Shown here piece by piece: positions 2,713-61,603 of a DNA stretch of 64,000 bases (position 1 is its first letter; each line of letters opens with the position of its first letter). The position numbers were made by a program, and so were the translations under genes. The notes beneath the pieces were generated by a model that saw nothing but the letters and a program-made list of their open reading frames with translations, searched no databases and was not told the DNA's origin. The DNA lies in the NCBI GenBank assembly GCA_934747965.1, contig CAKVHI010000006.1, positions 14,162-78,161 on the forward strand. Direction: 5' to 3'. The stretch comes from an uncultured Clostridia bacterium. Lineage in GTDB: Bacteria > Bacillota > Clostridia > Christensenellales > UBA1242.

Positions 2713-5700
2713 TTATTTAACTTTCATTTTAGTCCTTAACTTAACAAACAAGAATATTCCTCCTGCAACGACTAAAACAGCAATGACAATAACGATTATT
2801 GAAACTGCAGAAAGAGGCTCTTTTTTGTTTAGAACAAAACTTAATTCTGTATTCCCACTTGATGATTTTACTTGCACGACATATGTTCCTTTTGCATCTT
2901 TTGGAATAACAAAAGTGCTAACATCATTTATGCTTGAATTGTTAATTTCAGCAATCACATTATTGTTGACATAAATCTTACATTCACCAATTTGAGTGAA
3001 AATTAAATAAGGGTTATATGATAAAGTGATTTCTTTAGAAGTTTCTCCACCTTCAGCAAGTGTGGAATTTATTTTTATTTTTGCATCTTTATCTCTAATC
3101 CAAACCTTGAATGAATAATTTTGCTGACCTAAAATCAAATTTTGAGAAGATACAAACACTTCATATTCGCCACCTGCAAGATATTTAGCAAGAGTAACAA
3201 TGTCGTTGCCTTCATCATCTTTTGAAATAGAATTTGTATATTCGATTTCGCTTTTTAATGTTAAATTGTAAAGATATGTTTTTTCAAAATCGGACTCAAG
3301 CAAAACTTTTAATTGTTCAAGACTTGACTGATTATATGTTCCATCTTCTTGTGTGTAGATAGGGAATAAGGCAAGAATACGCTTGATTAAAGTTGTTGCA
3401 TCTTTTCCATCTTTCATTACTTTTGTAATGTTTTGACCATTCAAACTTACAAAACTAAATTCTTTTATAGCTTCATTGCTATTTAATATAGTAAAGAATA
3501 TAGTCTTTTTAATTTCAGGGCCATTAGTTGTCAATCTGCCAGAAACTGTAACTTTATAGAAGCCATAATCAGAGAAAATATAATTTTTGTTATCATCTTT
3601 TTTGATGCTCTTTATTTCATTATTATTTAACCATGCTTCAACTTTAAGACCATTTGCTCCTGTTACATATTGTTTTTCATTTAGTATAGTTAAACTAACA
3701 TCAGAATTAAAGATTTGATAATCTACAGGGATTTCATTATTTAATTGGATAGGGACTTCTTTATAAATTGCTAGATTTAAGAAAGTGTTTCCGCTGAATA
3801 GTTGAATGTTGCCAGCAAGGTCCTCAATATATAAACTGTAAATTCCACTTGGAACATCATCTAGTGTTATGATTTGTTCTTGATTTTCAGAATCAATGCT
3901 ATAAATATTTTCATTTAATTCTAACAACTTGTTGTTATAGAATAATTTTAAAACGATTTTGTTTGATTCATCGCTATTTATAATAGGCAATTTCAAAACA
4001 ATTCCATTCAAACCTGTTACAGTATATCCTTTAATAGCAATTTCAGAGTTATCACTAGCATCTGTAATTGAAAGGTTGCTTTCATTTTCAGTGTTATTCA
4101 AAGAGATGTTCAAAAAGTTTGAATTATAATCAATTTTTTTGATTGCGATGTATTTAAATGTGTCAGTGCCTTTCAAAATTTGATAAAGTTTGTAATCTTT
4201 AAAGGCATCTGTTGGAGTTAATGTTTTTAAATCTAAATTAAAGTCGTGATTTACTATAACTTTAGCCTCATAAATTGAGTAATAAACTTCAAAACTTTGA
4301 GGATTTGTGCTTTCAGTGAATTCAATACTTTTAACTGAGCAAGAAACAAGTTCAAAGTTTGTTATATTTTCTTCATTTGTTTCAACGGTGTAGGTCTTGT
4401 TTGTGGCTGTTGTAATATTGAATTTGTAAGTATTCTTTTTGCCAAGTTCGTTTATTGCAACAATTTCATAATTACCTAGGTCAGAGAATGTGTAATCAGT
4501 TGTTGTTATGTTAAATTCTTGTTTTTGTTCTTTTCCGCTTATTGTGTAAGTTCGCGTTACTGAAATATATTGCAAATTAAACAAAGTGTTGTTAATGAAA
4601 CTTAAATGAACATTTTTAGAAGTTGAAATAATGTTATCTTTTTCATTAGCAAAAATTCTTAAACTGTTTCCAGAGCTGTCTGTAAATTCAATTTGAGGCA
4701 TATAAGGGTAGTAGATATAACTATAAACAGTTTGACTTTGAAGTTCTTCATCTAATTTTGTCAAGTCAGTTAAAGTTACAATAAACTTAATTTGACTGTT
4801 AATGTAATCATCTCCAACTAATGAGAACAAGTCTAATTCTGTAGTTTTTTCTGTGATTTCTTTTTTATTTTTGTAAGTGTTTGGAAGTAGTTGATATTCA
4901 AATTCTATGTTATATAATTCTGGGTTGTATTGGAATTTTATTCCTTCTGAATATTGAGTGTAATTTTCGCCATTTTTAGTTACAAATCCAGCGCCATTTT
5001 CAAATATAAATTTGCTTTCGCTTTTTTCACCCAAATATCTAACAGCACTTTGAATTCTTCCAAAATTATCTTCCCAAACAAAGTAATAAACTTTTATTGC
5101 ATTTCTAATCTGTTCGTTGTTTTCATCATCTAAAACATAACAAGTATCGTTAAAAGTGAAAACATAGTTTTGACTATTAAACAATTCATCAGGTATCTCG
5201 GCTTTATTTGAATCTTTTTTAAGTCTTTCTCCTTTTTTTCCGTCTATTACTGGATAAACACTTAAAGATTTAATGTAAGTTGCGTTTTCACTTGAATTAG
5301 GGATTGTTAAAACGATTTTGTTATTGTCGTAATTTTTAATAAAATCTTTAATTTCAAATTCTTTGTTTGGTGTTGAATTTGTGATTGTTAAAGTTTTTCC
5401 AAATTGATTTGAAATTGTTATTTTGCAAACATTTCCATATTCATTTATTTGTGCAAAATTCTTCATTATGGAGTTAATTCTTTCAACCAACAAATTACAC
5501 TGTGTAAAATAATCAAACTTAGAATCATTAACAGCAAAAGGTAGGTATCTTAAATTAAATTCTTCACTATTATTGCCGTTTTCATTAATCAAAACTTTGA
5601 CAGTAAGAAAATTAAAATCATTATTTGTTGAAATTGCTGTTAACTTAAATTGAGGGTCAATTAAATTTGTTTCACTAGAAGTTGTTGTTTGTTCTTCATT

Positions 5701-8700
5701 ACTACCACTTACGGAATATTTAGCCAACAAACCTTGGCTTTCAGTGTAATAAACGGTGTAAACAGAATAGTTGCCAGCCTCATCTGCTTCTATAATTTCA
5801 TAATAGCCTTCTCCTTGGTCGAAGAATGTTTCAGTAATAGAGTTGTATTCTTTGGTTGAGTAAAGTTTTTTACCATCTGTTGTGTAAGTGTTTATATCAA
5901 AACGGTATCTTGATATTGTTTGGTCAGAAAATCTTGCATCTCCCAAAACTAAACTTTGCATATTTTCAATGTTTTGACCAGCAAATTTTTCATATTTTCT
6001 TATATAAATGTTTGCAGTATCAGTTTCATCTGATTTTGTTGGGGCAGAGTTTACAACAAAAACATAATTGTCAAAATTAATATCATTTGATATATCTTTG
6101 TTAACCAAACTTAGTTTTAATTGTTCTTTTTCTGTGTCAAGTAAGAAATTGTCTTGTTGAAGATATTTAATGAAATTTGTGTTTGGACTTGTGTGGTCTA
6201 TTATCATTTCATAATCACAAGTTGAATAATTATTTTGATATTTACTGTCTATGTTATAAGACAAAATCAAATTATATTTTGCTTCCAAACTTTTTCCATT
6301 TTCGAACAAAACATCACTATTTTTTGAAGGGTCAAGAATTGTTAGTATATATTTAAATCTTGAAAGACCTATTTCTGTGCTCTTAAAATTAAATACATTA
6401 CCAATGCTAGAAATATAGTAAATAGTTTTTCCGTTTTCTAGTGTAAATGAGCCAGTTTTTTGAATGTCATTTTCTTTTGTCGTTCTAAAAATAACATTGC
6501 CGTTTTGTTTTAAAATAATGTTGTTTAGGTCTATTGCATACAAAAATTCATCTTCAGGGTCGGTAAATTCAAAACTTAAAGTGCTTGAATTTGTGCTTTT
6601 AACATTGTCTAATTTCTCATTTTCATCTTTTACAAAATATCCAGACGGTGTATTTTTGTTTGTTTTGATTTTTAGTTCAACATAGTTGGCATATTTTTTG
6701 ATTTGATCATATTTGTCTTTACCAGCCAAGTTGTAGTTATCAAAGTCAAAGAATGTGTTGTCAAAAATCAATAATGAATATTCGCCACTACTCAAAGAGA
6801 AATTAGTTATTCTTTCATATTCTTTTTCATCTGTTTTAAATAAAGCAAAGTTGATTTTTAAATTATCTTTATCTTCATTATTCAAACTTTCATATTTATA
6901 AACAAAATTTTGTTTTTCTGAGTTTTTCCATGCAAAATTTAGCATATTTGTTGATAAAGGAATATTGTTTAAAATTAGTTTGTAAATTTTATCTGCTGAA
7001 AGTTCTTTTGCATCAAGAGTAATATTAATATTTTTGCCAATCAAAGTGCTTTGTAATGATTCAAAATAACTTATAGGTGAGTGTCTGTCTACATAAAATG
7101 TTTGAGTGATAGAAGTTTTGTTCTTATAAGTTTTTGTTATGACATATTTTCCTTCCTTAGAAACATACTTTCCGTCTTTATAAGTCAAAACTATTGATTT
7201 CACAATATAATCGCCATAAGCGTTGTTTTCAAAAACCATGTTGCCACTTTCTTTAAGTTCCAAAAGATTATATTGTTCACTTATGCTAGAGAATTTAATT
7301 TGATTATCCGTTTCAACAAAAGGATAAAAATCAAGTATTAAACTTTCCAAATCAAAGCCGTCATTATTAATTTTGTTTTTAAAAGTAATATAAACATTTT
7401 CACTGTTAGTAGGGTGGGTTTTATAAACTCTTGAAGTTATATTATCTTTCTTTCCAAAAATTAAAATTTGATTTCTATCTGTGTTAAGATTAAACTTTTT
7501 AGAAACATCTTTTAATGAAATTGTGTAAATACAATCAAATTCTTTATTTTCTGTGTTTTTTGAAAGGTCAATGCTAAAGATATTGTGTTCAACTTCACAT
7601 TCAATCGTTTTAATTTCATTTTCACTATGTTTGCTAAAAATCTTTCTTTCAATTTTTATTTTATCTAATTTGCTTTTTAAATAAGTTGTGCCAGTTGTCA
7701 AATTTGTATCATTAAAATATTCTTTTGCAAAACTAAGATTGTTGTCATCAATTTTAAATTCAAGAACCTTATAATCTCCAAAAATAACAGAGTAGTTGTC
7801 GGAAATTAGGTTCAAAGAATTGTCTTTTTCATTAAGAATTGCTTCGTTATTTGATACATCAACTAATTTTTTGCTTTCTGCGAGAGCAGAGACCAAACTA
7901 TTGCTTTCAAGAGCGATGCTTGGAGAATTATCAAACAAAACAAAGAAGGTCTGTTTGTTTCCAGCAAGGTCAGTAATTGTAAATTTATAAAGTGCGTTAA
8001 TGGAAATTATTGCATTTGTATTGTCATCTTTAATTTGAAGATTTGATAGGTTTGAAAGATTGTTTAAAGTGTTATTTGAATAAGTTAAATTTTTTCTAAT
8101 ACTGTTTAGTTGATAGTTGTTATAAATCAACAAGTCTTTATCATCAAAATCATATAGTTTGTCTGCTTTTTGATAATTTAAAGAAATGTAATCATAAGTA
8201 ACAGAAATTAAATTGCTTTTGATTTTTTTGTCTTGAACAAAAACTGCAAAATTTTTGTCTGTGCTTGCTTTATTTTCATTTAATGATATTGAAGATAATG
8301 CAAAACGATTTTCTTTTTTCTCGACACTTACAACATCAAACAAAATTTCAGTGGTGTCAATAACAAATCTTTTTTCTATTGTTACTTCACTTGTGCCATA
8401 AGTTAGTTGTACCAAATATTCGCCATTTGTTTTTTTATCAAAATATATATAGTTTTGTGAATTATTTGATTTAATTGAGTAGTCTTTATTCTCTTGCAAA
8501 ATTGTGCCATTTCTGGTTACTTTAATTTTGCTTGGAAGAACAAACGGATTTGTTTGGTCTTTGTTCCAAACACAATAAACATCTTGATTTGTAAACCCAT
8601 TTGCATTAACTAAAGTGCTAAATTGTTCATCGTTATAGAAGTTTAATTGTGGGGTAGAGTTTTCAATTTTAAATATCAAAACTTTATAAAAAGTATCATC

Positions 8701-10164
8701 TTTATAAGTTTGGAATTTGTAAGGAATTATAACAACATACAAACCTTCTTTTTCAAAACGCTTGCTTGTTGTGAAGTCGGATTCACTTGAGCCAAACTCA
8801 TATTCATTAGTCGAAGAGTTTTTGCTAATTAAATAATATTTTGCTCCGCTTAAATTCTCTGTAACATAACTATTTATTTTGATTGGTGCTTGATTTGTTA
8901 CTGCAACTTTGTCTAAAAAATTAGCATTGTTGTTTAAATAAGAAATCACATTATTAATTGTTGCTACATTTTTATCATCTATTTTTTCATAAAAATCTTC
9001 AATATAACTAAAATCACTTTGATATAAATCATTATACAAACATTTGTAATCTTGATTTAAGCGTTTAATATCGTTGTTTGTTTCTTGATAATTTTTATAT
9101 AATGCTTCGTATCCAAAATTGTAAAGCAAAGGAGTTTTAAGGCTTTTAACATTGCTTGATTTTTCTTCATCAAGAATTGTTAAATTTTTGTTTTCACCTA
9201 TGCAAATCAAATATTTTATTTCATATTTTCCAATTCTGTTAAGTTCTAATTTAAGTTTTGATTCATTCAAAGTTAAAATTTTGCTTTCATAAATATTGTT
9301 GTCGGAAGATACTAATTTAAATTTAGTAACATTATTTTCTTCCATACTTTCAATTTTTAAAGTAACAGAAGTTTCGTTGTATGTATAATTTATAATTGGC
9401 GAAAATTTGTATGGATCAAAAGTTATAGTAGGGTAGTTTGCATTACTCTTATTGTAAAAATACACATCAGTTTCATTTCCATTTTGCAGACAATTTTCAA
9501 TTTTAGGGCTATTTTCACCATTTTTGCCAAAGTAAATTGTTTCATCTATTAAATAAAAATCAAACGAAGTTGAGTCGCTTATAATATTAGTGCCGTTTGT
9601 GGTGTAGGAATAATTAAATGTAAGATCGATATGAGCACTTTCTGAATATTCAACATTTGAAAGAGTTGTTTGAATTGTTGAAAAATCAAATGCTTTTATT
9701 AACACAAAATTTTGTGAGCCTGATATTACATTGTATGAATCAAGCAAGAAAGATTTTTTATCGTTTTTAGTGTAAATCGTAAGGCTTGTAGACAACATTT
9801 TGATAAAAGTTGTGTTTTGGCTTGGAGATAAATATACCAAAACGGCTTCGTAATTATCAGGATTAATAGATGCTACATTGCCACTAGAAATTAAATTGTC
9901 ATCTTCTGTGCTGTTTAAAATGCTATCTTTTTTATTATAAAGTTCTTCTTCAGTATATTCACCAAGATGTTTTGGAATGTTTTGCCCCTCTTCATCTTTT
10001 GAAATATTATTATCGCTATATTTCACTTTTTTTACAGTCAAACTTACACTAGTGGATGCTGCTTCAAGGCTTACTGTGTTTATTGGATTTATAACGCCAA
10101 ATAAACCAGCAAATAATGCTAGTGCAAAAACAATGATAAAAGACATTTTTTTAAATTTACTCAT
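2713..10164 (-). CDS. Giant (2483 aa) secreted, C-terminally membrane-anchored surface protein; putative adhesin built from divergent beta-sandwich modules
   Basis: A 7.45-kb uninterrupted ORF in AT-rich DNA. Signal peptide MSKFKKMSFIIVFALALFAGLFGVINPINTVSLEAAS. C-terminal helix plus basic tail VSIIVIVIAVLVVAGGIFLFVKLRTKMKVK, and no LPXTG. Recurrent G-x-Y-x-hydrophobic strand signature, three times followed by D/E-x-AGN. Confidence 0.85.
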   Translation of the reverse strand: MSKFKKMSFIIVFALALFAGLFGVINPINTVSLEAASTSVSLTVKKVKYSDNNISKDEEGQNIPKHLGEYTEEELYNKKDSILNSTEDDNLISSGNVASINPDNYEAVLVYLSPSQNTTFIKMLSTSLTIYTKNDKKSFLLDSYNVISGSQNFVLIKAFDFSTIQTTLSNVEYSESAHIDLTFNYSYTTNGTNIISDSTSFDFYLIDETIYFGKNGENSPKIENCLQNGNETDVYFYNKSNANYPTITFDPYKFSPIINYTYNETSVTLKIESMEENNVTKFKLVSSDNNIYESKILTLNESKLKLELNRIGKYEIKYLICIGENKNLTILDEEKSSNVKSLKTPLLYNFGYEALYKNYQETNNDIKRLNQDYKCLYNDLYQSDFSYIEDFYEKIDDKNVATINNVISYLNNNANFLDKVAVTNQAPIKINSYVTENLSGAKYYLISKNSSTNEYEFGSSESDFTTSKRFEKEGLYVVIIPYKFQTYKDDTFYKVLIFKIENSTPQLNFYNDEQFSTLVNANGFTNQDVYCVWNKDQTNPFVLPSKIKVTRNGTILQENKDYSIKSNNSQNYIYFDKKTNGEYLVQLTYGTSEVTIEKRFVIDTTEILFDVVSVEKKENRFALSSISLNENKASTDKNFAVFVQDKKIKSNLISVTYDYISLNYQKADKLYDFDDKDLLIYNNYQLNSIRKNLTYSNNTLNNLSNLSNLQIKDDNTNAIISINALYKFTITDLAGNKQTFFVLFDNSPSIALESNSLVSALAESKKLVDVSNNEAILNEKDNSLNLISDNYSVIFGDYKVLEFKIDDNNLSFAKEYFNDTNLTTGTTYLKSKLDKIKIERKIFSKHSENEIKTIECEVEHNIFSIDLSKNTENKEFDCIYTISLKDVSKKFNLNTDRNQILIFGKKDNITSRVYKTHPTNSENVYITFKNKINNDGFDLESLILDFYPFVETDNQIKFSSISEQYNLLELKESGNMVFENNAYGDYIVKSIVLTYKDGKYVSKEGKYVITKTYKNKTSITQTFYVDRHSPISYFESLQSTLIGKNINITLDAKELSADKIYKLILNNIPLSTNMLNFAWKNSEKQNFVYKYESLNNEDKDNLKINFALFKTDEKEYERITNFSLSSGEYSLLIFDNTFFDFDNYNLAGKDKYDQIKKYANYVELKIKTNKNTPSGYFVKDENEKLDNVKSTNSSTLSFEFTDPEDEFLYAIDLNNIILKQNGNVIFRTTKENDIQKTGSFTLENGKTIYYISSIGNVFNFKSTEIGLSRFKYILTILDPSKNSDVLFENGKSLEAKYNLILSYNIDSKYQNNYSTCDYEMIIDHTSPNTNFIKYLQQDNFLLDTEKEQLKLSLVNKDISNDINFDNYVFVVNSAPTKSDETDTANIYIRKYEKFAGQNIENMQSLVLGDARFSDQTISRYRFDINTYTTDGKKLYSTKEYNSITETFFDQGEGYYEIIEADEAGNYSVYTVYYTESQGLLAKYSVSGSNEEQTTTSSETNLIDPQFKLTAISTNNDFNFLTVKVLINENGNNSEEFNLRYLPFAVNDSKFDYFTQCNLLVERINSIMKNFAQINEYGNVCKITISNQFGKTLTITNSTPNKEFEIKDFIKNYDNNKIVLTIPNSSENATYIKSLSVYPVIDGKKGERLKKDSNKAEIPDELFNSQNYVFTFNDTCYVLDDENNEQIRNAIKVYYFVWEDNFGRIQSAVRYLGEKSESKFIFENGAGFVTKNGENYTQYSEGIKFQYNPELYNIEFEYQLLPNTYKNKKEITEKTTELDLFSLVGDDYINSQIKFIVTLTDLTKLDEELQSQTVYSYIYYPYMPQIEFTDSSGNSLRIFANEKDNIISTSKNVHLSFINNTLFNLQYISVTRTYTISGKEQKQEFNITTTDYTFSDLGNYEIVAINELGKKNTYKFNITTATNKTYTVETNEENITNFELVSCSVKSIEFTESTNPQSFEVYYSIYEAKVIVNHDFNLDLKTLTPTDAFKDYKLYQILKGTDTFKYIAIKKIDYNSNFLNISLNNTENESNLSITDASDNSEIAIKGYTVTGLNGIVLKLPIINSDESNKIVLKLFYNNKLLELNENIYSIDSENQEQIITLDDVPSGIYSLYIEDLAGNIQLFSGNTFLNLAIYKEVPIQLNNEIPVDYQIFNSDVSLTILNEKQYVTGANGLKVEAWLNNNEIKSIKKDDNKNYIFSDYGFYKVTVSGRLTTNGPEIKKTIFFTILNSNEAIKEFSFVSLNGQNITKVMKDGKDATTLIKRILALFPIYTQEDGTYNQSSLEQLKVLLESDFEKTYLYNLTLKSEIEYTNSISKDDEGNDIVTLAKYLAGGEYEVFVSSQNLILGQQNYSFKVWIRDKDAKIKINSTLAEGGETSKEITLSYNPYLIFTQIGECKIYVNNNVIAEINNSSINDVSTFVIPKDAKGTYVVQVKSSSGNTELSFVLNKKEPLSAVSIIVIVIAVLVVAGGIFLFVKLRTKMKVK

Positions 10165-10348
10165 AATAACTCCTACTTTAATATGAATATTTTAACATAT
10201 TTTCAAATTTCAAATCAAACAAATAAATATATTATTTAAAAATAATTTATATATAATATACATTCTTATTTTTTGTTAAATTTTTATTTTTATCAAATTA
10301 ATTAAGTTATTGTAAAAAATTTTTTATAAAGCATTGAAATTATCCAAA

Positions 10349-26867: not shown

Positions 26868-26885
26868 TTTTTTGTTAATAAAAAA

Positions 26886-26915
26886 AGTTGAAGCGTGTTG
26901 CTTCAACTTTTTTTC
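26886..26915. terminator. Bidirectional intrinsic terminator (serves groEL on the minus strand)
   Basis: AGTTGAAGC-gtgtt-GCTTCAACT flanked by an A-run and a T-run. Confidence 0.8.
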
Positions 26916-29945: not shown

Positions 29946-30113
29946 TTATAGCCAAATTGTTTATTAGAATAATGTTAAATTATATGAAATGTAATGTTCT
30001 TGAAGATAAAAATTAGTGTTTTAAAAACTATTTCATAAAATAAAAAGAATAATAATTTAAATTTCATTTTAAAAAATTTTTATTCTTTTTTTGTTTTGTG
30101 TTATAATAATTAC

Positions 30114-32075
30114 ATGGATTATTCGCATAAATTTGAAGTGGTCAGCAAGTTTATTCCAAGTGGCGACCAACCCAAAGCAATAGAAAGTTTATCTCAAGGC
30201 ATTTTAGACGGTCTTAAAAGTCAAGTTTTGGTGGGAGTTACAGGAAGTGGTAAGACTTACACAATGGCAAAAGTTATTGAAAAACTAAACCGACCAGTTT
30301 TGGTGCTTGCTCATAACAAAACATTGGCAGCGCAACTTTGCAATGAATTTAGGGAGTTTTTTCCAAACAATAGAGTAGAGTTTTTTGTTTCTTATTATGA
30401 TTACTATCAACCTGAAGCATACATTGTTTCTAGCGACACATATATAGAAAAAGATATGAGCATAAATGACGATATAGACAAACTTCGTCATAGTGCCACC
30501 TGTTCGCTTTTAGAGCGTAATGACACAATCGTTGTGGCATCTGTGTCGTGCATATATGGTCTTGGGAGCCCCGAGGAATATTCAGGACTTCAAATTTCGC
30601 TACGCCCGGGCGATAAAATTGAACGAGATGAAGTAATTTCTAGGCTTGTGAACATTCAGTATGAAAGAAATGACATAGATTTTAAACGCGCCACTTTCAG
30701 AGTTAGGGGGGATATTGTTGAAGTTATCCCGGCTTATTCTAGTGTAACCGCCTACAGAATTGAATTTTTTGGCGATGAAATTGATAAATTAAGTGAAATT
30801 GACATAGTATCAGGGAAAGTTATATGTGTGCTTTCACATATTGCCATATATCCCGCAAGCCATTATGCGGTTGGAAGCGAAAAACTTTTGAATGTTTTAA
30901 AGATAATTGAAAAAGACGCTGAAATTGAAGTTGAAGAAATGCGAAACAAGGGCAAACTTTTAGAGGCGGAAAGATTAAAACAACGCACAAGTTATGACAT
31001 TGAAATGATGAGAGAAATGGGTTATTGCAATGGAATTGAAAACTATTCTCGATATTTTGACGGAAGAAGTGTTGGAGAACCCCCATTTACTCTTTTAGAC
31101 TATTTTAATAAAAATTTTGTTTTGTTTGTTGATGAAAGCCACATAACCATTCCGCAAATTCGGGCAATGTATAACGGAGATAGAAGCCGAAAGGTTAATC
31201 TTGTTGATTACGGATTTAGGCTAAAATCGAGTTTTGATAATCGTCCTCTTACATTTGATGAGTTTAATGAAAAATTAGGACAAGTTATTTATGTTTCAGC
31301 AACACCAAATGAATATGAACTTAAAAAAGCCGATAATGTTGTTGAACAAATAATCAGGCCAACAGGATTGTTAGACCCTCAAGTTGAAGTAAGAAAAATT
31401 GAAGGTCAGATTGATGACCTTATTTCAGAAATTCATAAAACAATAATCAAAGGTGGGCGGATTTTGGTTACGACTTTAACCAAAAAAATGAGTGAATCTT
31501 TAACAAACTATTTGATAGATTATGGAATTAAAGTTAAATATCTTCACAGTGAAATAGACACGCTTGAACGAATTGATATAATAAATTCTCTTCGAGAAGG
31601 TGAAATTGATGTTGTTGTGGGAATTAATCTGTTGAGAGAAGGCTTAGATATTCCTGAAGTTATGCTTGTTTGTATTTTAGATGCCGATAAAGAAGGCTTT
31701 TTGCGAAGTGAAACTTCTCTTATCCAAACTATTGGCCGTGCTGCCAGAAATAGTGAAGCAAAAGTTATTATGTATGCCGATTGCATCACAAAAAGCATGA
31801 AAAGGGCCATTGATGAAACTAACAGGCGTAGGCAAATTCAAATGGAATATAATAAAGAGCATAATATTGTTCCAAAAACTATCAAAAAAGAAATTAAAAA
31901 TACTCTTGATATTGGAAAGAAAGTTGACGGAGAGCGACAAAAAATTGATGTTAAAGACATTCCAAAGCAAATTGAACTTTTGAAAGGTTTGATGAATGAG
32001 GCAAGCAAAAACCTTGATTTTGAAAAAGCAATTTTGCTTAGAGAACAAATTAAAGAACTTAAAAAGTTGATTTAA
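30114..32075 (+). CDS. uvrB: Excinuclease ABC subunit B
   Basis: [17 protein letters not shown], Walker [13 protein letters not shown], and a C-terminal UVR domain ([17 protein letters not shown]). ATG 30114 sits 6 nt after TGtTATAAT. Confidence 0.97.
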
Positions 32076-32089
32076 ATTATCAGTGTTGC

Positions 32090-32201
32090 GTGGCTTGGGC
32101 TTTAAGGCATAAAATTTAACGCATTTCATGCGTTAAATTTGGCTTTCACTTTGTGAAAGTAACTTTGCAAAGCAAAGTATGCCTTAAAGCCCAAAAACCA
32201 C
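32090..32201. repeat. Nested perfect palindromes forming a four-way junction (outer stem plus three hairpins) in the uvrB-uvrA spacer
   Basis: Outer stem GGGCTTTAAGGCAT (32097-110) pairs with ATGCCTTAAAGCCC (32179-192) and extends to GTGG/CCAC. HP1 is AAATTTAACGCAT-ttc-ATGCGTTAAATTT (32112-140). HP2 is CTTTCAC-ttt-GTGAAAG (32143-159). HP3 is ACTTTGC-aaa-GCAAAGT (32162-178). Confidence 0.9.
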
Positions 32202-32215
32202 AAAAGGATATAAAA

Positions 32216-35047
32216 ATGGAAGAATTTATAAAAATAAAAGGCGCAAAAGAAAATAACTTGCAAAACATAGATTTAACTCTTCCCAGAAACAAACTTATTG
32301 TTTTTACAGGGGTAAGTGGAAGTGGAAAAAGCACTCTTGCTTTTGACACAATTTTTGCCGAGGGGCAACGCAAATTTATGGAAAGTTTGTCAAGTTATGC
32401 TCGAATGTTTTTGGGTCAGATGCAAAAACCAAATGTTGATTCGATTGAAGGGTTATCTCCAGCAATCTCTATAGACCAGAAAAGCACATCGCAAAATCCA
32501 AGGTCAACGGTTGGCACGGTTACAGAAATTTATGATTATTTAAGACTTTTGTATGCAAATATTGGTATACCTTTTTGTCCTAATTGCCATAAGCCAATCA
32601 AAAAACAAACAGTAGATCAGATTGTCGACAAAGTTAAGGAACTTGGGCTTGGCGAAAAAATATTGATTGAATCTCCAATTATCAGTGGTGAAAAAGGCAC
32701 TCATGCAAAAACGCTTGAAAGTTTGAATAAAAGTGGATTTATTCGTGTTAAAATTGATGGAAATATTTATACTCTCGATGAAGAAATAAGTTTAGACAAA
32801 AACATAAAACATACGATAAATGTAGTTATAGACAGAATTATCATCAAGGAAGATAATTTGGGAAGAATAGAAGAATCTATTGAAAACGCAATTAAGCTTT
32901 CAAAAGGCAAAGTTATAATCACTCATAATGAAATTGAGATGTTATACTCAACAAATTTTGCTTGTCCAGAATGTGGGTATAGTTATTCAGAAATATCGCC
33001 AAGATTATTTAGTTTTAATAATCCATTTGGGGCTTGCAAACATTGCTTAGGTCTTGGTTTTAAACAACAAATTAGTGAAGACTTAATTTTGTCTAAGCCT
33101 AATTTAACCTTAAATGAAGGCGGACTTACAATTTCAGGTTGGAACATGGATGCAGGCTCGATTTCATTTTCTCAATTCAAAGCACTTTCAAAAAAATATG
33201 GTTTCAGTATGGATGTTCCCGTAAAAGACTTACCAAAAGATGTTATAAAACTTTTGCTTTATGGAACGAACGATGAAATAGAAGTTAACTATAAATCAAG
33301 CAAGTGGGAAACAACTTACAAAACAAAATTTGAAGGAATCATCCCCAATTTGGAAAGGCGTTTTAGGGAAACGACAAGTGATTATATAAAAGGTGAAATC
33401 TCAAAATATATGGTGCAAACCCCTTGCCCAGAATGTAAGGGTAAAAGACTTAATAAAGAAGCCTTGAATGTTTTTATCAACAACAAAAATATTGATGATT
33501 TTTGCAGTTTGAGTGTTGAAGATGCTCTTAAGTTTTTAGATGATTTAAAGTTGAATGAAAGTGAAAAAATAATAAGTGAAAGCATTTTGAAAGAAGTTAG
33601 GGCAAGATTAAACTTCTTGAAGAATGTTGGACTTAACTATTTAACTTTGTCGCGTGCTTCAAACACTTTAAGCGGGGGCGAAAGTCAACGAATAAGACTT
33701 GCTACGCAAATAGGCAGTGGTCTTGTTGGTGTTTTATATATTTTGGATGAGCCTTCGATAGGGCTTCATCAAAAAGACAACGATAAACTTATTCAAACAT
33801 TAAAAAATTTAAGAGATTTAGGAAATACAGTTATTGTTGTTGAACATGATGAGGACACAATTAAAAGTGCTGACTACATTGTTGATATTGGACCTCTAGC
33901 CGGAAGCCATGGCGGACGCGTTGTGGCACAAGGGACCTTAGAAGAAGTTTTAAAAAGTAAAGATAGCATAACAGCAAAGTTTTTGCGAGGGGAAGAAAAA
34001 ATTGAAGTCCCAAAAATAAGGCGTAAAGCAAACAAAGGTTACATTGAGATTAAAGGAGCAAATCAAAATAATCTTAAAAACATAAATGTTAAGTTTCCAC
34101 TTGGCGTTTTGACCGTTGTTACTGGGGTAAGCGGAAGTGGTAAGAGTACCTTAGTTAATCAAACCTTGTTTCCAAATGCTTATAAATTAACAAATAATAA
34201 AAATTCTTTAAGTCCTATTGGTTGCAAATCAGTTGAAGGTATTAATGACAACACTATAGATAAAGTTATCAACATAGACCAATCACCAATCGGCAGAACT
34301 CCTCGAAGCAATCCGGCAACATACACGGGTTTATTCACTTTAATTCGTGAACTTTACAGTCAAACTGAATTGAGCAAAATGAGAGGATACACGGCTGGAA
34401 GATTTAGTTTTAATATTCCGGGTGGAAGATGTGAAGCGTGCAGTGGAGATGGAATTAAAAAAATTGAAATGTACTTTTTGCCAGATGTTTATGTGCCTTG
34501 CGAAGTTTGCGGTGGCAAAAGATATAACAGGGAAACTTTAGAAGTTAAATACAAAGGCAAGTCTATCAGCGATGTTTTGGACATGACTATTGAACAGGCC
34601 TTAATCTTTTTTGAAAATTTCCCACAACTAAAAACGAAACTACAAACACTTTATGATGTAGGTCTTGGATATATCAAACTTGGTCAAAGTGCAACAACTT
34701 TAAGTGGTGGGGAAGCACAAAGGGTTAAACTTGCAACTGAACTTTGTCGAAAGTCGACAGGAAGAACCTTATATATTTTGGATGAACCAACAACTGGGCT
34801 TCATATGTATGATGTAAAAAAACTTTCACAAATCTTACAGCGTCTAGTTGAAGGCGGAAATACTTGTATTGTTATTGAGCATAATCTTGATATTATCAAG
34901 ACTGCCGACTATATCATAGATATGGGCCCTGATGGCGGTAAAAACGGCGGACAGGTTATTGCTAAAGGCACTCCAGAAGAAATTATTAAATGTGAAAAAA
35001 GTTACACAGGTCAGTATCTTAAAAATTTGTTACAACCAAAAAACTAA
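32216..35047 (+). CDS. uvrA: Excinuclease ABC subunit A
   Basis: Two ABC modules (GVSGSGKSTLAFDTI; GVSGSGKSTLVNQTL; LSGGESQR; LSGGEAQR) and zinc-finger CxxC pairs. ATG 32216 chosen; the track's start at 32153 lies inside the palindromic element. Confidence 0.97.
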   Translation: MEEFIKIKGAKENNLQNIDLTLPRNKLIVFTGVSGSGKSTLAFDTIFAEGQRKFMESLSSYARMFLGQMQKPNVDSIEGLSPAISIDQKSTSQNPRSTVGTVTEIYDYLRLLYANIGIPFCPNCHKPIKKQTVDQIVDKVKELGLGEKILIESPIISGEKGTHAKTLESLNKSGFIRVKIDGNIYTLDEEISLDKNIKHTINVVIDRIIIKEDNLGRIEESIENAIKLSKGKVIITHNEIEMLYSTNFACPECGYSYSEISPRLFSFNNPFGACKHCLGLGFKQQISEDLILSKPNLTLNEGGLTISGWNMDAGSISFSQFKALSKKYGFSMDVPVKDLPKDVIKLLLYGTNDEIEVNYKSSKWETTYKTKFEGIIPNLERRFRETTSDYIKGEISKYMVQTPCPECKGKRLNKEALNVFINNKNIDDFCSLSVEDALKFLDDLKLNESEKIISESILKEVRARLNFLKNVGLNYLTLSRASNTLSGGESQRIRLATQIGSGLVGVLYILDEPSIGLHQKDNDKLIQTLKNLRDLGNTVIVVEHDEDTIKSADYIVDIGPLAGSHGGRVVAQGTLEEVLKSKDSITAKFLRGEEKIEVPKIRRKANKGYIEIKGANQNNLKNINVKFPLGVLTVVTGVSGSGKSTLVNQTLFPNAYKLTNNKNSLSPIGCKSVEGINDNTIDKVINIDQSPIGRTPRSNPATYTGLFTLIRELYSQTELSKMRGYTAGRFSFNIPGGRCEACSGDGIKKIEMYFLPDVYVPCEVCGGKRYNRETLEVKYKGKSISDVLDMTIEQALIFFENFPQLKTKLQTLYDVGLGYIKLGQSATTLSGGEAQRVKLATELCRKSTGRTLYILDEPTTGLHMYDVKKLSQILQRLVEGGNTCIVIEHNLDIIKTADYIIDMGPDGGKNGGQVIAKGTPEEIIKCEKSYTGQYLKNLLQPKN

Positions 35048-36803: not shown

Positions 36804-36879
36804 ATGCAACCAAATTCGGTTAATGTCCGAATTTGGTTGCATATTTTTAAAACGAACCACAACTTTTGTGGTTTTTTTT
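36804..36879 (+). terminator. Tandem terminators after cysS
   Basis: A perfect 16-bp hairpin ATGCAACCAAATTCGG-ttaatgt-CCGAATTTGGTTGCAT (36804-42) plus ATTTTT. It is followed by AACCACAA-ctt-TTGTGGTT plus T8 (36855-79). Confidence 0.8.
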
Positions 36880-36950
36880 CATTAAAAATTAAACAGATTT
36901 TTTGTAACAAAAGTTGTTTAAAAAATTTTTAAATGTAAATTATTTAATGT

Positions 36951-37670
36951 ATGTTTACATTAATTGCAAGATGTGTGATAATTTATTTAATTGTTTTGTG
37001 TGTTTTCAGACTTATGGGTAAGCGTCAACTTGGAGAACTTCAACCATTTGAATTTGTCATAACCTTGATTGTCGCAGATTTGGCGACACTTCCTATGGCA
37101 GACACGGCAATTCCATTAATTCATGGAATTGTTCCATTAATTACGCTTTTGTTGATACATTTTGGTATTTCAGTTTTAATTCAAAAAAGTCTGTTTTTTC
37201 GAAAAGTTATAAGCGGTAAACCTGTTATAATTATTTCTCCAAAAGGTATAGATTATGAAAATCTAAAAAAATTAAACTTAAACCTTAACGATGTTCAAGA
37301 AAGTTTAAGAAATTTGAATTTCTTTAATTTTGAAGATATTGAATATGCAATCGTTGAAACCAATGGTAAAATTACTGTAATTCCAAAAGTTGCATCAACT
37401 CCTGTTACATGTGAAGATTTGCAAATAAACAAGCCTGAAAACAGGTTAATCACAATGCTTATTTCGGATGGAAAACTTGTTAAAGAAAACTTGGAATTAT
37501 GCGGAGTGGATGAAAACTTTATTTTGAGAAATATCAAAAGAGCAGGAGAAAGTAAAATTAAAAATATTTTAATTTTTACACTAGACAATGATGGTAATAT
37601 GTATATACAGCCAAAAAATAAGCAATATGTAACATTAAAAACAACTTTTGAAGGTGGTAATAACTGGTGA
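36951..37670 (+). CDS. DUF421 (YetF-like) membrane protein
   Basis: N-terminal IIYLIVLCVFRLMGKRQLGELQPFEFVITLIVADLA is typical of the YetF/DUF421 family. Confidence 0.7.
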   Translation: MFTLIARCVIIYLIVLCVFRLMGKRQLGELQPFEFVITLIVADLATLPMADTAIPLIHGIVPLITLLLIHFGISVLIQKSLFFRKVISGKPVIIISPKGIDYENLKKLNLNLNDVQESLRNLNFFNFEDIEYAIVETNGKITVIPKVASTPVTCEDLQINKPENRLITMLISDGKLVKENLELCGVDENFILRNIKRAGESKIKNILIFTLDNDGNMYIQPKNKQYVTLKTTFEGGNNW

Positions 37671-38056
37671 AGCGCGGTTTTGTAATAATATCTATTTTTT
37701 TGATTTTGATAGGTTTATGTGTGTGGGAAGATGTTTATTTAAGCTCGAATTTAAAACTACTGAATGAAAAAGCCACAGAACTTGCTCAAATTGTTAGAAA
37801 TTCTGAGGATGTAAATACGGAAGAAGTAAAAAACAAAATTAAAGAACTAGATGACTTTTGGGTAAAAACTGAAAATCGTTTTTGCCTTGTGGTTAATCAT
37901 ATAAACATGGAAGAAGCAGGCGAGCAAATTACAAAAATAAAAACATTTTCTGAACTTAACAAAAAAGAAGAACTTTTGGTCGAGATAGATTTGTTAGTTT
38001 ATTTTTCTGAAAGTTATGAGCATATTATTGTTCCACACATCCAAAATATTTTGTAA
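37667..38056 (+). CDS. DUF4363-like small membrane protein
   Basis: The GTG start overlaps the upstream stop (GTGA). One N-terminal TM helix. Commonly paired with DUF421 in spore formers. Confidence 0.55.
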   Translation: MKRGFVIISIFLILIGLCVWEDVYLSSNLKLLNEKATELAQIVRNSEDVNTEEVKNKIKELDDFWVKTENRFCLVVNHINMEEAGEQITKIKTFSELNKKEELLVEIDLLVYFSESYEHIIVPHIQNIL

Positions 38057-38151: not shown

Positions 38152-38538
38152 CTAGAACAAATTTTCATCCTTAGAAACTTTTTTGTTTGACTTTGCTTTA
38201 TATTTTTTTTCTGTTTCTACAGTTATAAAATCAGAGTAATCTTTTGAGTATTTTGGAAAAAATTTTGACATAATTTTTCGATATTTAACAGACAAATCTT
38301 TTCCGAAATCATCAAATGCTTCAAATTCTTTTAAAGTTATTGCAGAAAAATTAATAGCATTTTTTTGAAATGAAAAATTATTGTCCTCTCTCCAAATAAT
38401 AATAAATCTATTTTTTCTGTCGACAAAAGTTTTTGCAGTAACATTCATTGGCTCTAAGCCCAAAATTGTGGCAATTTCAACTAATTTTTTGTTTGAAAAT
38501 TTTTTTAATCTGTTGATGTATTGATTTCTTTTATACAT
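38152..38538 (-). CDS. Hypothetical protein (128 aa)
   Basis: ORF sitting between a terminator and the upstream flippase gene. No motif recognised. Confidence 0.45.
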   Translation of the reverse strand: MYKRNQYINRLKKFSNKKLVEIATILGLEPMNVTAKTFVDRKNRFIIIWREDNNFSFQKNAINFSAITLKEFEAFDDFGKDLSVKYRKIMSKFFPKYSKDYSDFITVETEKKYKAKSNKKVSKDENLF

Positions 38539-44463: not shown

Positions 44464-44568
44464 AATAACTTCCTTTAATTTGATTAACTAACTAAGTATA
44501 TATTAAATATAAATTTTTTGCAAATAAATTTAATTATAAAAATATTTTTTTTGTTAAAAATTTTTAAT

Positions 44569-44943
44569 ATGTCAAATTCAAAGTCTAAAAAATCTTTAAT
44601 AATAATTAGTTTGATTAGCGGTGTGTTTGTTGGTTTTGTAAACGGTTTTTTTGGTGGCGGTGGCGGAATGATTGTCGTTCCTGTGCTAATATTTTTGTTA
44701 GGTCTTGAAGAAAAAGTGGCACATGCAACCGCAATATTGATTATTTTACCATTAAGTATAACCAGTTCAATAATTTATATAACAAAAGGCGGATTTGAAT
44801 TTTCAAATTTGGCTTTAACAACAGTAGGTGTTATATTAGGTGGAATAATAGGCTCGTTTGCTTTAAAAAAAATAAATAACACGGCTTTAAGATTTGTTTT
44901 TGCCTTTATTATGATCGTGGCGGGAATAAAATTAATGTTTTAG
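44569..44943 (+). CDS. TauE/SafE (TSUP) family half-size permease, subunit 1
   Basis: GFFGGGGGMIVVPVLIF motif, about 4 TM helices. ATG 44569 chosen over the track's upstream start. Confidence 0.65.
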   Translation: MSNSKSKKSLIIISLISGVFVGFVNGFFGGGGGMIVVPVLIFLLGLEEKVAHATAILIILPLSITSSIIYITKGGFEFSNLALTTVGVILGGIIGSFALKKINNTALRFVFAFIMIVAGIKLMF

Positions 44944-44974
44944 AAACTTATGGGTTAAAAAATAAAGGGAAATT

Positions 44975-45379
44975 ATGGAATTTTTATTAATTTTGTTTGG
45001 GTTAATTGGTGGAATTTTGGGTGGAATGGGAATGGGCGGAGGCACATTACTAATTCCTCTTCTTACAATATTTGGTGGGTTAAATCAAATTGAAAGTCAA
45101 GCAATAAATTTGATTTCTTTTTCAATAATGGCAATAATTTCAATAATAATCCATGCAAAAAACAAATTGATTAATTTTAAAGTTGCCCTTCCATTAATTC
45201 TTTCAGGTGTGGCATTTTCAGTGCTTGGCTCGCTGATTGCAAATTCAATTAACACAACAACACTAAAAAGTTTGTTTGGCGTTTTTTTGGTTGCCCTTGG
45301 CTTGTTTCAAGGGGCAAGTTTTTTCATATTTGACAATAAAAAAACAAAAACGAAAGCGAAAAAGCCAAATAAAAAATAA
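44975..45379 (+). CDS. TauE/SafE (TSUP) family half-size permease, subunit 2
   Basis: GGMGMGGGTLLIPLLTIF motif, about 4 TM helices, SD AAAGGGA. Confidence 0.65.
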   Translation: MEFLLILFGLIGGILGGMGMGGGTLLIPLLTIFGGLNQIESQAINLISFSIMAIISIIIHAKNKLINFKVALPLILSGVAFSVLGSLIANSINTTTLKSLFGVFLVALGLFQGASFFIFDNKKTKTKAKKPNKK

Positions 45380-56759: not shown

Positions 56760-57869
56760 ATGGCAAAAAATTATTATGAAACCTTAGGTGTTGATAAAAA
56801 CGCTAGCAGTGATGAAATAAAATCGGCTTACAGAAAATTAGCAAAACAATATCATCCCGACCTTAATAAAAGCGAGGACGCAGCTACAAAATTTAAGGAA
56901 ATTAACGAAGCCTACGAATGTCTTTCTGACCCTCAAAAAAAGGCTAATTATGACCAATTTGGCTCAAGTGAGGGTCCTCAAGGCTTCGGCTCTAATGCTG
57001 GTGGAGGCTTTTCTGGATTTGGCGGTTTTGAAGACATTTTTAATATGTTTTCTGGATTTGGTGGTAATGGCGCAAGGGCTAGTAGCAAAACTCAAGGTGA
57101 AGATATAAATGTAAGAATTAACATTTCGTTCAAGGAAGCGTGCCTTGGTGGGTCAAAATCAATTTCTATTAGCAGAATAGAATCGTGTGATGACTGCAAA
57201 GGGACTGGAGCAAAAAACGGAAAAGAATTTACTACTTGTTCATCTTGTGGCGGAACGGGTCAAGTTAAAAAAGTGCAAAATACATTGTTTGGTCAAATGG
57301 TTAATGTTACAACTTGTTCACAGTGCGGAGGAACTGGAAAAATTATCAAGGAAAAATGTTCTTCTTGCGGAGGAAAAGGTTATAACAAGCGAGCAAGGAC
57401 TATGACCATAAATATTCCGGCTGGGGTTAATGATGGTCAAATTTTAACTTTAAGAAACGAGGGAAACTCTAGCCTAAATGGTGGACCTAATGGAAATTTG
57501 AATATTATCTTAACCGTTGGCACACATGAATTGCTAACAAGGAAAGATTGTAATCTTTACATTACAATTCCTATACCTTTTACGGTTGCAATGCTTGGCG
57601 GAGAAGTTAAAGTGCCTACTGTGAATGAAATTGTTGCTTTAAAAATACCAGAACTTACACAATCTGGCACAGTCTTTAAACTTAAAGGTAAAGGCGTTAA
57701 AATGTTAAGACGAGATTCTTATGGAGATTTGTTTGTTACAATTACAACGGAATTTCCAAAATCACTAGACAAAAAGACTAAAGATAGTTTGCAAGAAATT
57801 GCTTCAAATGTTAGTGATGGAAGTTATCAGAAATATCGTGATTATGTTTTGAAACTAAATAAACTTTAA
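56760..57869 (+). CDS. dnaJ: Co-chaperone DnaJ
   Basis: J domain with HPD (KQYHPDLNK), a G/F region, and four CxxCxGxG repeats ([32 protein letters not shown]). Confidence 0.97.
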
Positions 57870-57871
57870 AA

Positions 57872-57894
57872 AAGACCCATGAGGGTCTTTTTTG
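57872..57894 (+). terminator. Intrinsic terminator of the dnaK operon
   Basis: AAGACCC-atga-GGGTCTT plus T-run. Confidence 0.85.
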
Positions 57895-61360: not shown

Positions 61361-61575
61361 CTTTTTAAACTAAAAAAAGTTACAAAAAATTATACTAACT
61401 TTTTTAACTAAAAAGTTACAAAAAGCTTGGTGGTTGCGATTCCACCAACCCTACAAACGCTTTAAAAGCAAAACTTTTTTAAATTGCTGTAACATAATGA
61501 ATATTCTTAAAATAAATTTGGTCACTTTTTGCCACAAAGCAATGTTTTAACATTAATTTTATGCAGGTATAAAAA

Positions 61576-61603
61576 ATCTCAACTTAATTGTTGAGATTTT
61601 TTT
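61576..61603. terminator. Bidirectional intrinsic terminator
   Basis: ATCTCAAC-ttaatt-GTTGAGAT flanked by A6 and T7. Confidence 0.8.

Follow-up and report, generated by a model that had tools for sequence, protein, structure and literature searches.

The genes uvrB and uvrA of an uncultured Clostridia bacterium (Christensenellales, UBA1242) are separated by a spacer of 140 nt, counted from the uvrB stop codon (32073-32075) to the uvrA ATG (32216). This spacer was analysed within a 64-kb window, by which we mean the whole stretch of 64,000 nucleotides from positions 14,162 to 78,161 of the forward strand of contig CAKVHI010000006.1 (GenBank assembly GCA_934747965.1); all coordinates are positions in that window. 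We hold, with somewhat more confidence than doubt, that the spacer reflects a young, species-specific 133-nt fold-back (nested-palindrome) DNA insertion into a uvrB-uvrA junction at which stop and start codons ancestrally overlapped and translation of the two genes was coupled. The palindrome itself had been noticed in a reading made without database searches (hereafter the sequence-only reading). It is confirmed and lies far beyond chance: its coordinates, its pairings, the 41 Watson-Crick core pairs and the length of the spacer are all present in the sequence, and the outer stem is longer than first described, at 17 bp.

The features of the junction are listed below. Precomputed Pfam domains of their homologues support the assignment of the two flanking genes to uvrB and uvrA.

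30114..32075, + strand: uvrB, 653 aa, ending ...KELKKLI before the stop codon (translation; homologues carry UvrB Pfam domains)
32072..32204, + strand: lineage-specific insertion, 133 nt, 35% GC, between ...TTGAT and AGGAT... (BLAST breakpoints and junctions of relatives)
32072..32089, + strand: unpaired left part of the insertion, 18 nt, TTAAATTATCAGTGTTGC, which contributes TAA (32073-32075) as the new stop codon of uvrB (no pairing in the centroid structure)
32090-32093, + strand: basal stem, left arm GTGG, pairing with CCAC at 32198-32201 (sequence, RNA and DNA folds)
32095-32111, + strand: outer stem, left arm TTGGGCTTTAAGGCATA, of a 17-bp perfect inverted repeat, 100% complementary (repeat search)
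32112-32140, + strand: hairpin 1, AAATTTAACGCAT-TTC-ATGCGTTAAATTT, 13-bp perfect stem, loop TTC, 3-nt spacer (repeat search, fold)
32143-32159, + strand: hairpin 2, CTTTCAC-TTT-GTGAAAG, 7-bp perfect stem, loop TTT (sequence, fold)
32162-32178, + strand: hairpin 3, ACTTTGC-AAA-GCAAAGT, 7-bp perfect stem, loop AAA (sequence, fold)
32178-32194, + strand: outer stem, right arm TATGCCTTAAAGCCCAA (repeat search)
32198-32201, + strand: basal stem, right arm CCAC (sequence and fold)
32205..32215, + strand: remnant of the ancestral junction, an AGGAT Shine-Dalgarno-like motif with the spacer that leads to the uvrA ATG (not paired in the centroid structure)
32216..35047, + strand: uvrA, 943 aa (exact protein in a public collection; orthologues with Pfam UvrA_DNA-bind and UvrA_inter)

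The junction in related lineages

Orthologous uvrB-uvrA spacers were compared, as the sequence-only reading had proposed, at seven related loci (L001-L006 and L180-L182; six lineages, UvrB 87-93% identical), and the element was absent from all of them. Each of these junctions reads ...(A/T)TAGGAGAAAAATA(G/A)(A)TGGAAGA..., with the uvrB stop codon overlapping or abutting the uvrA start and a Shine-Dalgarno motif, AGGAG, within the last uvrB codons. As judged from these alignments, a stop/start overlap without any spacer is the ancestral state of the junction as well as the prevailing one. In a BLAST comparison of L002 with the window, the break fell between adjacent L002 positions 7389 and 7390, equivalent to window positions 32071 and 32205, and the relative has lost no sequence. 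Because all seven related junctions are compact and the breakpoints are contiguous, the window carries a clean 133-nt insertion. Flank identity to the relatives is normal up to the junction (0.76-0.83 for the uvrB 3' end and 0.85-0.92 for the uvrA 5' end), and a foreign recombined tract across the junction was rejected on that ground.

The first bases of the insert (T TAA) supply a new stop codon, leaving a UvrB that is three residues (GEK) shorter than that of all relatives, in which the C-terminus is L/I-GEK. On the other side, the AGGAT motif descends from the AGGAG inside the last uvrB codons of the relatives and lies 8 nt before the uvrA ATG. Translational bypass of the insert was considered and rejected, the remnant of the old C-terminal codons being without both frame and stop. 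The palindromic body (32090-32201) falls short of the insert, with 18 unpaired nt before it and 3 nt after it. Direct repeats that would mark a target-site duplication were detected neither at the TTGAT and AGGA boundaries, nor at the basal stem's foot, nor beside the 17-bp repeat, the empty sites available for this comparison being those of other species at about 82% nucleotide identity. The composition of the insert is foreign to the intergenic DNA around it, with a GC content approximately twice as high: 0.353 compared with 0.184 in other intergenic sequence (31 spacers, 6.7 kb, range 10.7-25.9%), 29.8% in coding sequence and 28% in the window overall.

Differences at the end of UvrB were also seen in two other lineages. 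Among the homologues P0074, P0077 and P0082, and P0034 and P0035 (75-77% identical), near-identical proteins differ only in C-terminal extensions or truncations, for example ...KFDE versus ...KFDEWQNSCCWSKGEQ.... From these proteins, it would seem that stop-codon or frame changes have arisen repeatedly among strains at the overlapping uvrB-uvrA junction. At its other end, uvrB has an ambiguous start, TTG at 30096 or ATG at 30114, neither of which is preceded by a clear Shine-Dalgarno motif; public uvrB calls in the relatives are divided between the two (656 or 662 aa), and the protein of the window is recorded from the ATG only.

Occurrence in independent assemblies

By its UvrB homologues, the window belongs to low-GC, uncultured gut Christensenellales/Clostridia. 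The shorter, 653-aa UvrB of the window (...KKLI, from ATG 30114) is an exact entry of a public collection, and ten window proteins are exact entries that all lie on one 221,583-bp contig. Two more 653-aa UvrB proteins, which end in KELKRLI and are 99.4-99.7% identical, were found in independent Logan assemblies (SRR25477775 and SRR31227746), in which contigs L177 (13.7 kb, 98.5% nucleotide identity) and L178 (3.3 kb, 99.0%) hold the element at the identical place. The element is thus present in 3/3 available assemblies of one species, with 192 substitutions separating the window from L177 over 13.7 kb. Assembly errors can yield palindromes, but an assembly or sequencing artefact is scarcely credible here: three independent assemblies, from different samples and assemblers, hold the element within 3.3-13.7 kb of collinear sequence, and their flanks show ordinary strain-level substitutions. 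An artificially planted feature is likewise rejected, the truncated UvrB being an exact public entry.

Folding of the element

The outer stem as first described (GGGCTTTAAGGCAT at 32097-32110 with ATGCCTTAAAGCCC at 32179-32192, 14 bp) belongs to a perfect repeat of 17 bp. All core pairs are Watson-Crick (41/41), with no G-U pair among them. Folding as RNA and as single-stranded DNA, which the sequence-only reading had named as a check, returned the exact four-way junction in ViennaRNA (z -9.14 and -9.58, respectively), and this is both the minimum-free-energy (MFE) and the centroid structure. The + strand folds as RNA at -60.1 kcal/mol, with 0/200 shuffles as good, and as single-stranded DNA at -40.8 kcal/mol; the - strand folds as RNA at -58.5 kcal/mol (z -9.41), so that stability is equal on both strands. 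Across 3,195 overlapping 120-nt windows of the 64-kb sequence the element is an extreme outlier, at -55.6 against a mean of -16.9 (SD 5.2) and a runner-up of -39.5, and the same folding scan of 65 kb from four related genomes gave a best value of only -32.8.

Two features, the strict symmetry of the strands and the lack of G-U pairs, point to arms that arose at the DNA level. Flawless Watson-Crick pairing of equal stability on both strands would then reflect that origin together with youth, rather than selection on RNA. The same symmetry could also serve an action at the level of DNA, an option named in the sequence-only reading, as a cruciform or a cluster of twofold-symmetric sites for protein binding or recombination, such as an operator or a site-specific recombinase site. 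The strict dyad symmetry on both strands would suit such sites, and hairpin 1, a perfect palindrome of 29 bp, is shaped like an operator. However, no recombinase or integrase gene lies nearby among the open reading frames (ORFs) scanned, there is no LexA-type GAAC-N4-GTTC box, the site is absent from all relatives and nothing similar was found at other loci of the window or the relatives, which makes a DNA-level function very improbable.

The element was also compared with known RNA features. A consensus scan found no sigma-70 promoter in or adjoining it on either strand and zero intrinsic-terminator-like sites in 31500-32700 on both strands, and no T-run follows it on either strand, in agreement with the sequence-only reading that it is not an ordinary terminator. 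The stem lengths had been taken to rule out a tRNA; the stems are of 17, 13, 7 and 7 bp with 3-nt loops, and ARAGORN found no tRNA in the window. The Rfam check suggested at the outset gave no family match at the element, either at the gathering threshold (Rfam 15, whole window; sole match at 17179-17305) or in a permissive scan of 31900-32400, which returned chance-level matches only (at most 20 bits). The one Rfam match of the window is an L10 leader (RF00557, 75.9 bits) upstream of rplJ-rplL.

Variation within the species and selection on RNA

The three conspecific sequences differ little within the insertion. One substitution (32081 C>T) was found in the unpaired left part in the conspecific strains. 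Within the structure the only differences are 1-nt indels, GGG to GGGG in the left outer arm of L177 and L178 and TT to T in the right outer arm of L178. Both add bulges to the outer stem and neither is compensated, the MFE changing from -59.6 to -57.4 to -52.7 kcal/mol. Hairpins 1, 2 and 3 are invariant in L177 and L178, and the 112 paired nucleotides show 0 substitutions in the three strains compared with about 1.6 expected, a difference that is not significant. In this sample of three strains, the uncompensated indels look like the early neutral decay of a young palindrome and not like variation in a selected helix. The idea that the palindrome is an indel hotspot was dropped, as all indels between the strains are intergenic and their count in the element is within expectation.

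These data bear on the proposal that selection maintains the element in this species for its action as RNA within the uvrBA mRNA: as a stabiliser or a site of processing between the cistrons, it would uncouple them and so set the UvrB:UvrA ratio. Several features would suit such a role, including the extremely stable fold, its foot 14 nt past the stop codon with the uvrA ribosome-binding motif left free, three inner hairpins that are invariant in three strains, fixation in all available conspecific assemblies and the precedents of REP and Correia elements for such effects. However, seven relatives cope with a zero-length junction, the lack of G-U pairs and the equal folding of both strands are atypical of evolved RNAs, the natural variants are uncompensated outer-stem bulges, the invariance is not significant at 1-1.5% divergence and Rfam holds no match. 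We therefore regard a selected RNA element as unlikely. The sequence-only reading had listed a uvr-specific processing or stability element among its candidates; as an evolved regulator this is not supported, given an ancestral junction without a spacer and natural variants that weaken the outer stem without compensation. It had also reasoned that absence from closely related strains, with uvrBA expression unchanged, would favour a neutral insertion; absence was found at the species level, which speaks for a neutral insertion rather than a regulator.

Searches for further copies, donors and transposases

Copies of the element were sought in the window, which is the part of its own genome that was covered, in related genomes and in public collections. 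The arms, with up to two mismatches allowed, occur only once in the window. When the insert was compared by blastn-short with the masked rest of the window and with the relatives, only chance matches of 10-14 nt were obtained, and no local template or source was seen. A covariance model of the element (R1; 121 positions, 48 pairs), run with filters off against the window and approximately 130 kb of relatives, found the element alone; the best other match, at 19 bits, was partial, lay in a coding region and was judged to be chance. Among 185,579 species-representative GTDB genomes, the 17-mer arm gave 50 single matches in unrelated phyla, with 0 paired and 0 extending past the 17-mer. In JGI metagenomes the two-arm pattern had one chance match, within a histidine-kinase gene. 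Only chance 14-mer matches were found in IMG/VR, where the two-arm and hairpin-1 patterns were unmatched, and blastn searches of phage and plasmid collections returned nothing relevant. No RAYT (REP-associated tyrosine transposase) gene, tnpA, tnpB or integrase/recombinase gene was present among the 30 window ORFs scanned against Pfam.

The element had been proposed to be young or mobile. Its youth is borne out by its absence from seven related junctions and its presence in three conspecific assemblies; a mobile or repetitive nature is not, as neither a second copy, in the sequence sets searched, nor a target-site duplication was detected. Because no second copy or donor was found in the collections searched, it is the form of the element that argues for mobility.

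The lack of a donor is also what would be expected if the insertion had arisen de novo at the locus, by replication or repair errors such as several rounds of template switching, or fill-in primed from a hairpin where the junction was broken. Because these processes naturally make perfect inverted repeats, they would account for the perfect complementarity of all arms. The missing target-site duplication and the recurrence of a CTTT/AAAG motif in the outer stem, hairpin 2 and hairpin 3 are consistent with such an origin, as are the repair genes encoded at the locus and the inversion that the region has undergone nearby. On the other hand, blastn-short against the rest of the window gave 10-13-nt chance matches and no local template, the insert has double the GC content of the non-coding DNA around it, building four independent perfect stems within 133 nt would take several events in succession and the 18-nt unpaired leader is left unexplained. 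On balance, de novo origin is rather improbable.

Comparison with known element classes

In form, the insertion is closest to a bacterial MITE (miniature inverted-repeat transposable element) or fold-back element. It resembles the Correia (CREE/NEMIS, Neisseria), ERIC, RUP and bcr1 elements in its size range (about 100-155 nt), in the lack of an ORF and in its terminal inverted repeats, which here comprise 17 perfect bp and a 4-bp extension. Elements of the Correia/ERIC type also insert near or between genes and are co-transcribed, and their repeats form a long RNA helix that can be cleaved by RNase III or alters stability (PMC10969869, PMC2649163). When the features of MITEs were considered one by one, terminal inverted repeats were present, as was a small (below about 300 bp) non-coding intergenic body (133 nt, no ORF), while a target-site duplication was not. 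No further copy was found in the window, the approximately 130 kb of relatives, GTDB representatives, JGI metagenomes, IMG/VR or phages and plasmids, whereas Correia elements and other MITEs form multi-copy families with target-site duplication (TA for Correia). The inverted repeat of the uvr element is moreover subterminal, starting 18 nt in from the insertion's left boundary, and MITE families have not been described with an interior like its three flawless 3-nt-loop hairpins forming a four-way junction.

Other classes were further removed. Repetitive extragenic palindromes (REPs), with BIMEs and REPINs, likewise lie between the cistrons of operons, and nested palindromy is inherent to REP doublets. 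REPs act as barriers to 3'-exonucleases and raise the expression of the upstream relative to the downstream cistron, as in the malE-malF case. They are, however, imperfect palindromes of 20-40 nt with tens to hundreds of copies and a link to RAYT, none of which is seen for the uvr element, RAYT having been looked for among the 30 window ORFs scanned; the element occurs once in 64 kb, and the other intergenic hairpins of the window are unrelated in sequence. Integron attC sites pair imperfectly, with extrahelical bases, whereas pairing here is perfect, and an integrase is absent among the scanned neighbours. The element shows neither a tRNA cloverleaf, nor the T-run of an intrinsic terminator, nor an Rfam score above threshold. 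Like it, intrinsic terminators have a perfect hairpin of relatively high G+C content immediately after a stop codon, but the uvr element is multi-branched and has no T-run on either strand.

Of the other perfect intergenic hairpins in the window, most carry A/T runs on both sides, and several of those of at least 9 bp are symmetric A-run/stem/T-run structures that resemble bidirectional terminators, for example at 2667-2700, 11301-11332, 18226-18254, 26880-26914, 57868-57893 and 61571-61602. Because several of the window's hairpins have this A-run/stem/T-run form, the missing T-run at the uvr element stands out.

Palindrome-associated transposable elements (PATEs; relatives of ISDra2 and ISGst) provide a more specific comparison, sharing with the uvr element the lack of target duplication, insertion 3' of a short motif (for the uvr element a candidate target), strong single-stranded DNA structure and asymmetric distances from ends to hairpins. 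PATEs are derivatives of IS200/IS605 insertion sequences that lack genes (PMC10055086). Were the uvr element one of them, a Y1 HUH transposase would have moved it as single-stranded DNA, and its hairpins would be transposase-binding ends or derivatives of them. The insertion lies directly 3' of TTGAT (32067-32071), with no target-site duplication detected. ISDra2 inserts 3' of exactly this motif and has subterminal secondary structures no more than about 40 nt from either end (PMC2806898). The very stable single-stranded DNA fold and the asymmetric ends, with 18 nt from the left boundary to the foot of the stem and 3 nt on the right, also fit. The + strand, on which both motif and element are found, is G-rich (positive GC skew), and we take it to be the lagging-strand template favoured by the IS200/IS605 family.

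Against a PATE origin, TTGAT is found at the empty site in only one of six lineages (L002); L003 reads CTAATA, with the same ATA codon after CTA, and the three 93% identical relatives TTGTTA or TTATTA, which leaves the ancestral motif uncertain. The match was also spotted post hoc, and the coincidence with the ISDra2 target is suggestive but weak. Members of the family have two similar, separate end hairpins on the same strand, whereas the ends of the uvr element pair with each other, its arms are mutually complementary and no two of its four stems are alike as direct repeats. Neither a cognate transposase nor a sister copy was found: the 17-mer end arms give single, chance-like matches only in the 185,579 genomes, where no parent insertion sequence with these ends was seen, and tnpA and tnpB were not seen in the scanned part of the window. 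An element of the IS200/IS605 type is, on this evidence, improbable.

The young fold-back insertion that we favour has several observations weighing against it. A four-way junction in which a perfect outer stem encloses three perfect triloop hairpins could not be documented for any described family. Neither a second copy nor a donor was found in any of the sequence sets searched (window, relatives, GTDB representatives, JGI metagenomes, IMG/VR, phages and plasmids), and a transposase or HUH gene is absent among the 30 ORFs scanned. The zero substitutions in 112 paired nucleotides could also mean constraint, although they are not significant at 1-1.5% divergence. Because a target-site duplication was not detected, the manner of arrival points away from DDE-type MITEs; HUH-type single-strand transposition of a non-autonomous element, or a templated or illegitimate insertion, could each have produced an insertion of this kind. 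As it stands, the element is an orphan palindromic insertion of no known family. It may conceivably be the first example seen of an undescribed kind of very small, self-folded four-way-junction DNA element, moved as single-stranded DNA or made by fold-back synthesis, with no terminal duplications and a very low copy number. Repeat-based surveys would miss such elements because of that low copy number. We consider this a long shot. The copy number of prokaryotic MITEs can itself be as low as one per genome (PMC10969869).

Possible consequences for the uvrBA mRNA

Since no promoter or terminator consensus lies inside it, the element is probably co-transcribed within the uvrBA mRNA, where a structure of -60 kcal/mol would sit 14 nt after the uvrB stop codon; in the predicted fold the uvrA ribosome-binding motif is left unpaired. 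Translational coupling would be abolished by the insertion, with uvrA initiating independently at the retained AGGA motif. In its likely behaviour the element is closest, by analogy, to the intercistronic hairpins of the REP and Correia type. It might act as a barrier to 3'-exonucleases that stabilises the uvrB segment, as such intercistronic stem-loops do, or as a substrate for RNase III through its quasi-continuous basal helix of 21 bp (4 bp, a small internal loop and 17 bp). RNase III cleaves the terminal inverted repeats of Correia elements in mRNAs, and ERIC insertions alter transcript levels (PMC10969869, PMC2649163). By the same analogy a role as stabiliser or processing site in the uvrBA mRNA may be proposed, and any effect on processing or stability could possibly arise as a by-product of the insertion. 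In terms of fitness the insertion is most probably neutral or of mild effect.

If this interpretation is correct, the locus offers a clean natural case in which a tightly coupled operon junction was opened by a single insertion of structured DNA and yet tolerated. UvrB would have lost three residues, uvrA would retain its old ribosome-binding motif, and the empty sites of sibling species would allow comparison. It would also follow that perfect multi-branch palindromes can be single-copy orphans, invisible to repeat finders that depend on copy number. The element is restricted to one uncultured species, and no new regulatory principle of nucleotide-excision repair is revealed.

Other features of the window

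Another palindrome without a mismatch, ATGCAACCAAATTCGG-ttaatgt-CCGAATTTGGTTGCAT (stem of 16 bp), lies at 36804-36842, 30 nt downstream of cysS and just before a canonical terminator (36853-36880). Its sequence bears no relation to that of the uvr element. In the conspecific L177 it is kept (8471-8509) with one substitution, in the loop only, and homology with L005 ends exactly at its first base. Close by, at 36918-38056, a DUF421 gene and the next gene, of 129 aa, are inverted relative to L003 and L005 (BLAST), and the gene calls of L180 show the same difference in orientation. An extra 128-aa ORF with no Pfam match (38152-38538) adjoins the inverted segment, which is not bounded by long inverted repeats.

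A set of genes of conjugation type occupies 2713-14117. It comprises a 2,483-aa ORF (2713-10164) and a VirD4/TraG-type coupling protein (11332-13362), both on the - strand, and a gene resembling a type IV secretion system pilin (13749-14117); taken as a set, these genes suggest an integrated conjugative element, or a remnant of one, beside the ribosomal-protein region. At 44518-45379 there are two adjacent half-size TauE/SafE genes, the first of which (141 aa) corresponds to the Pfam profile's C-terminal half and the second (134 aa) to its N-terminal half; they may represent either a pair formed by splitting or permutation or two half-transporters.

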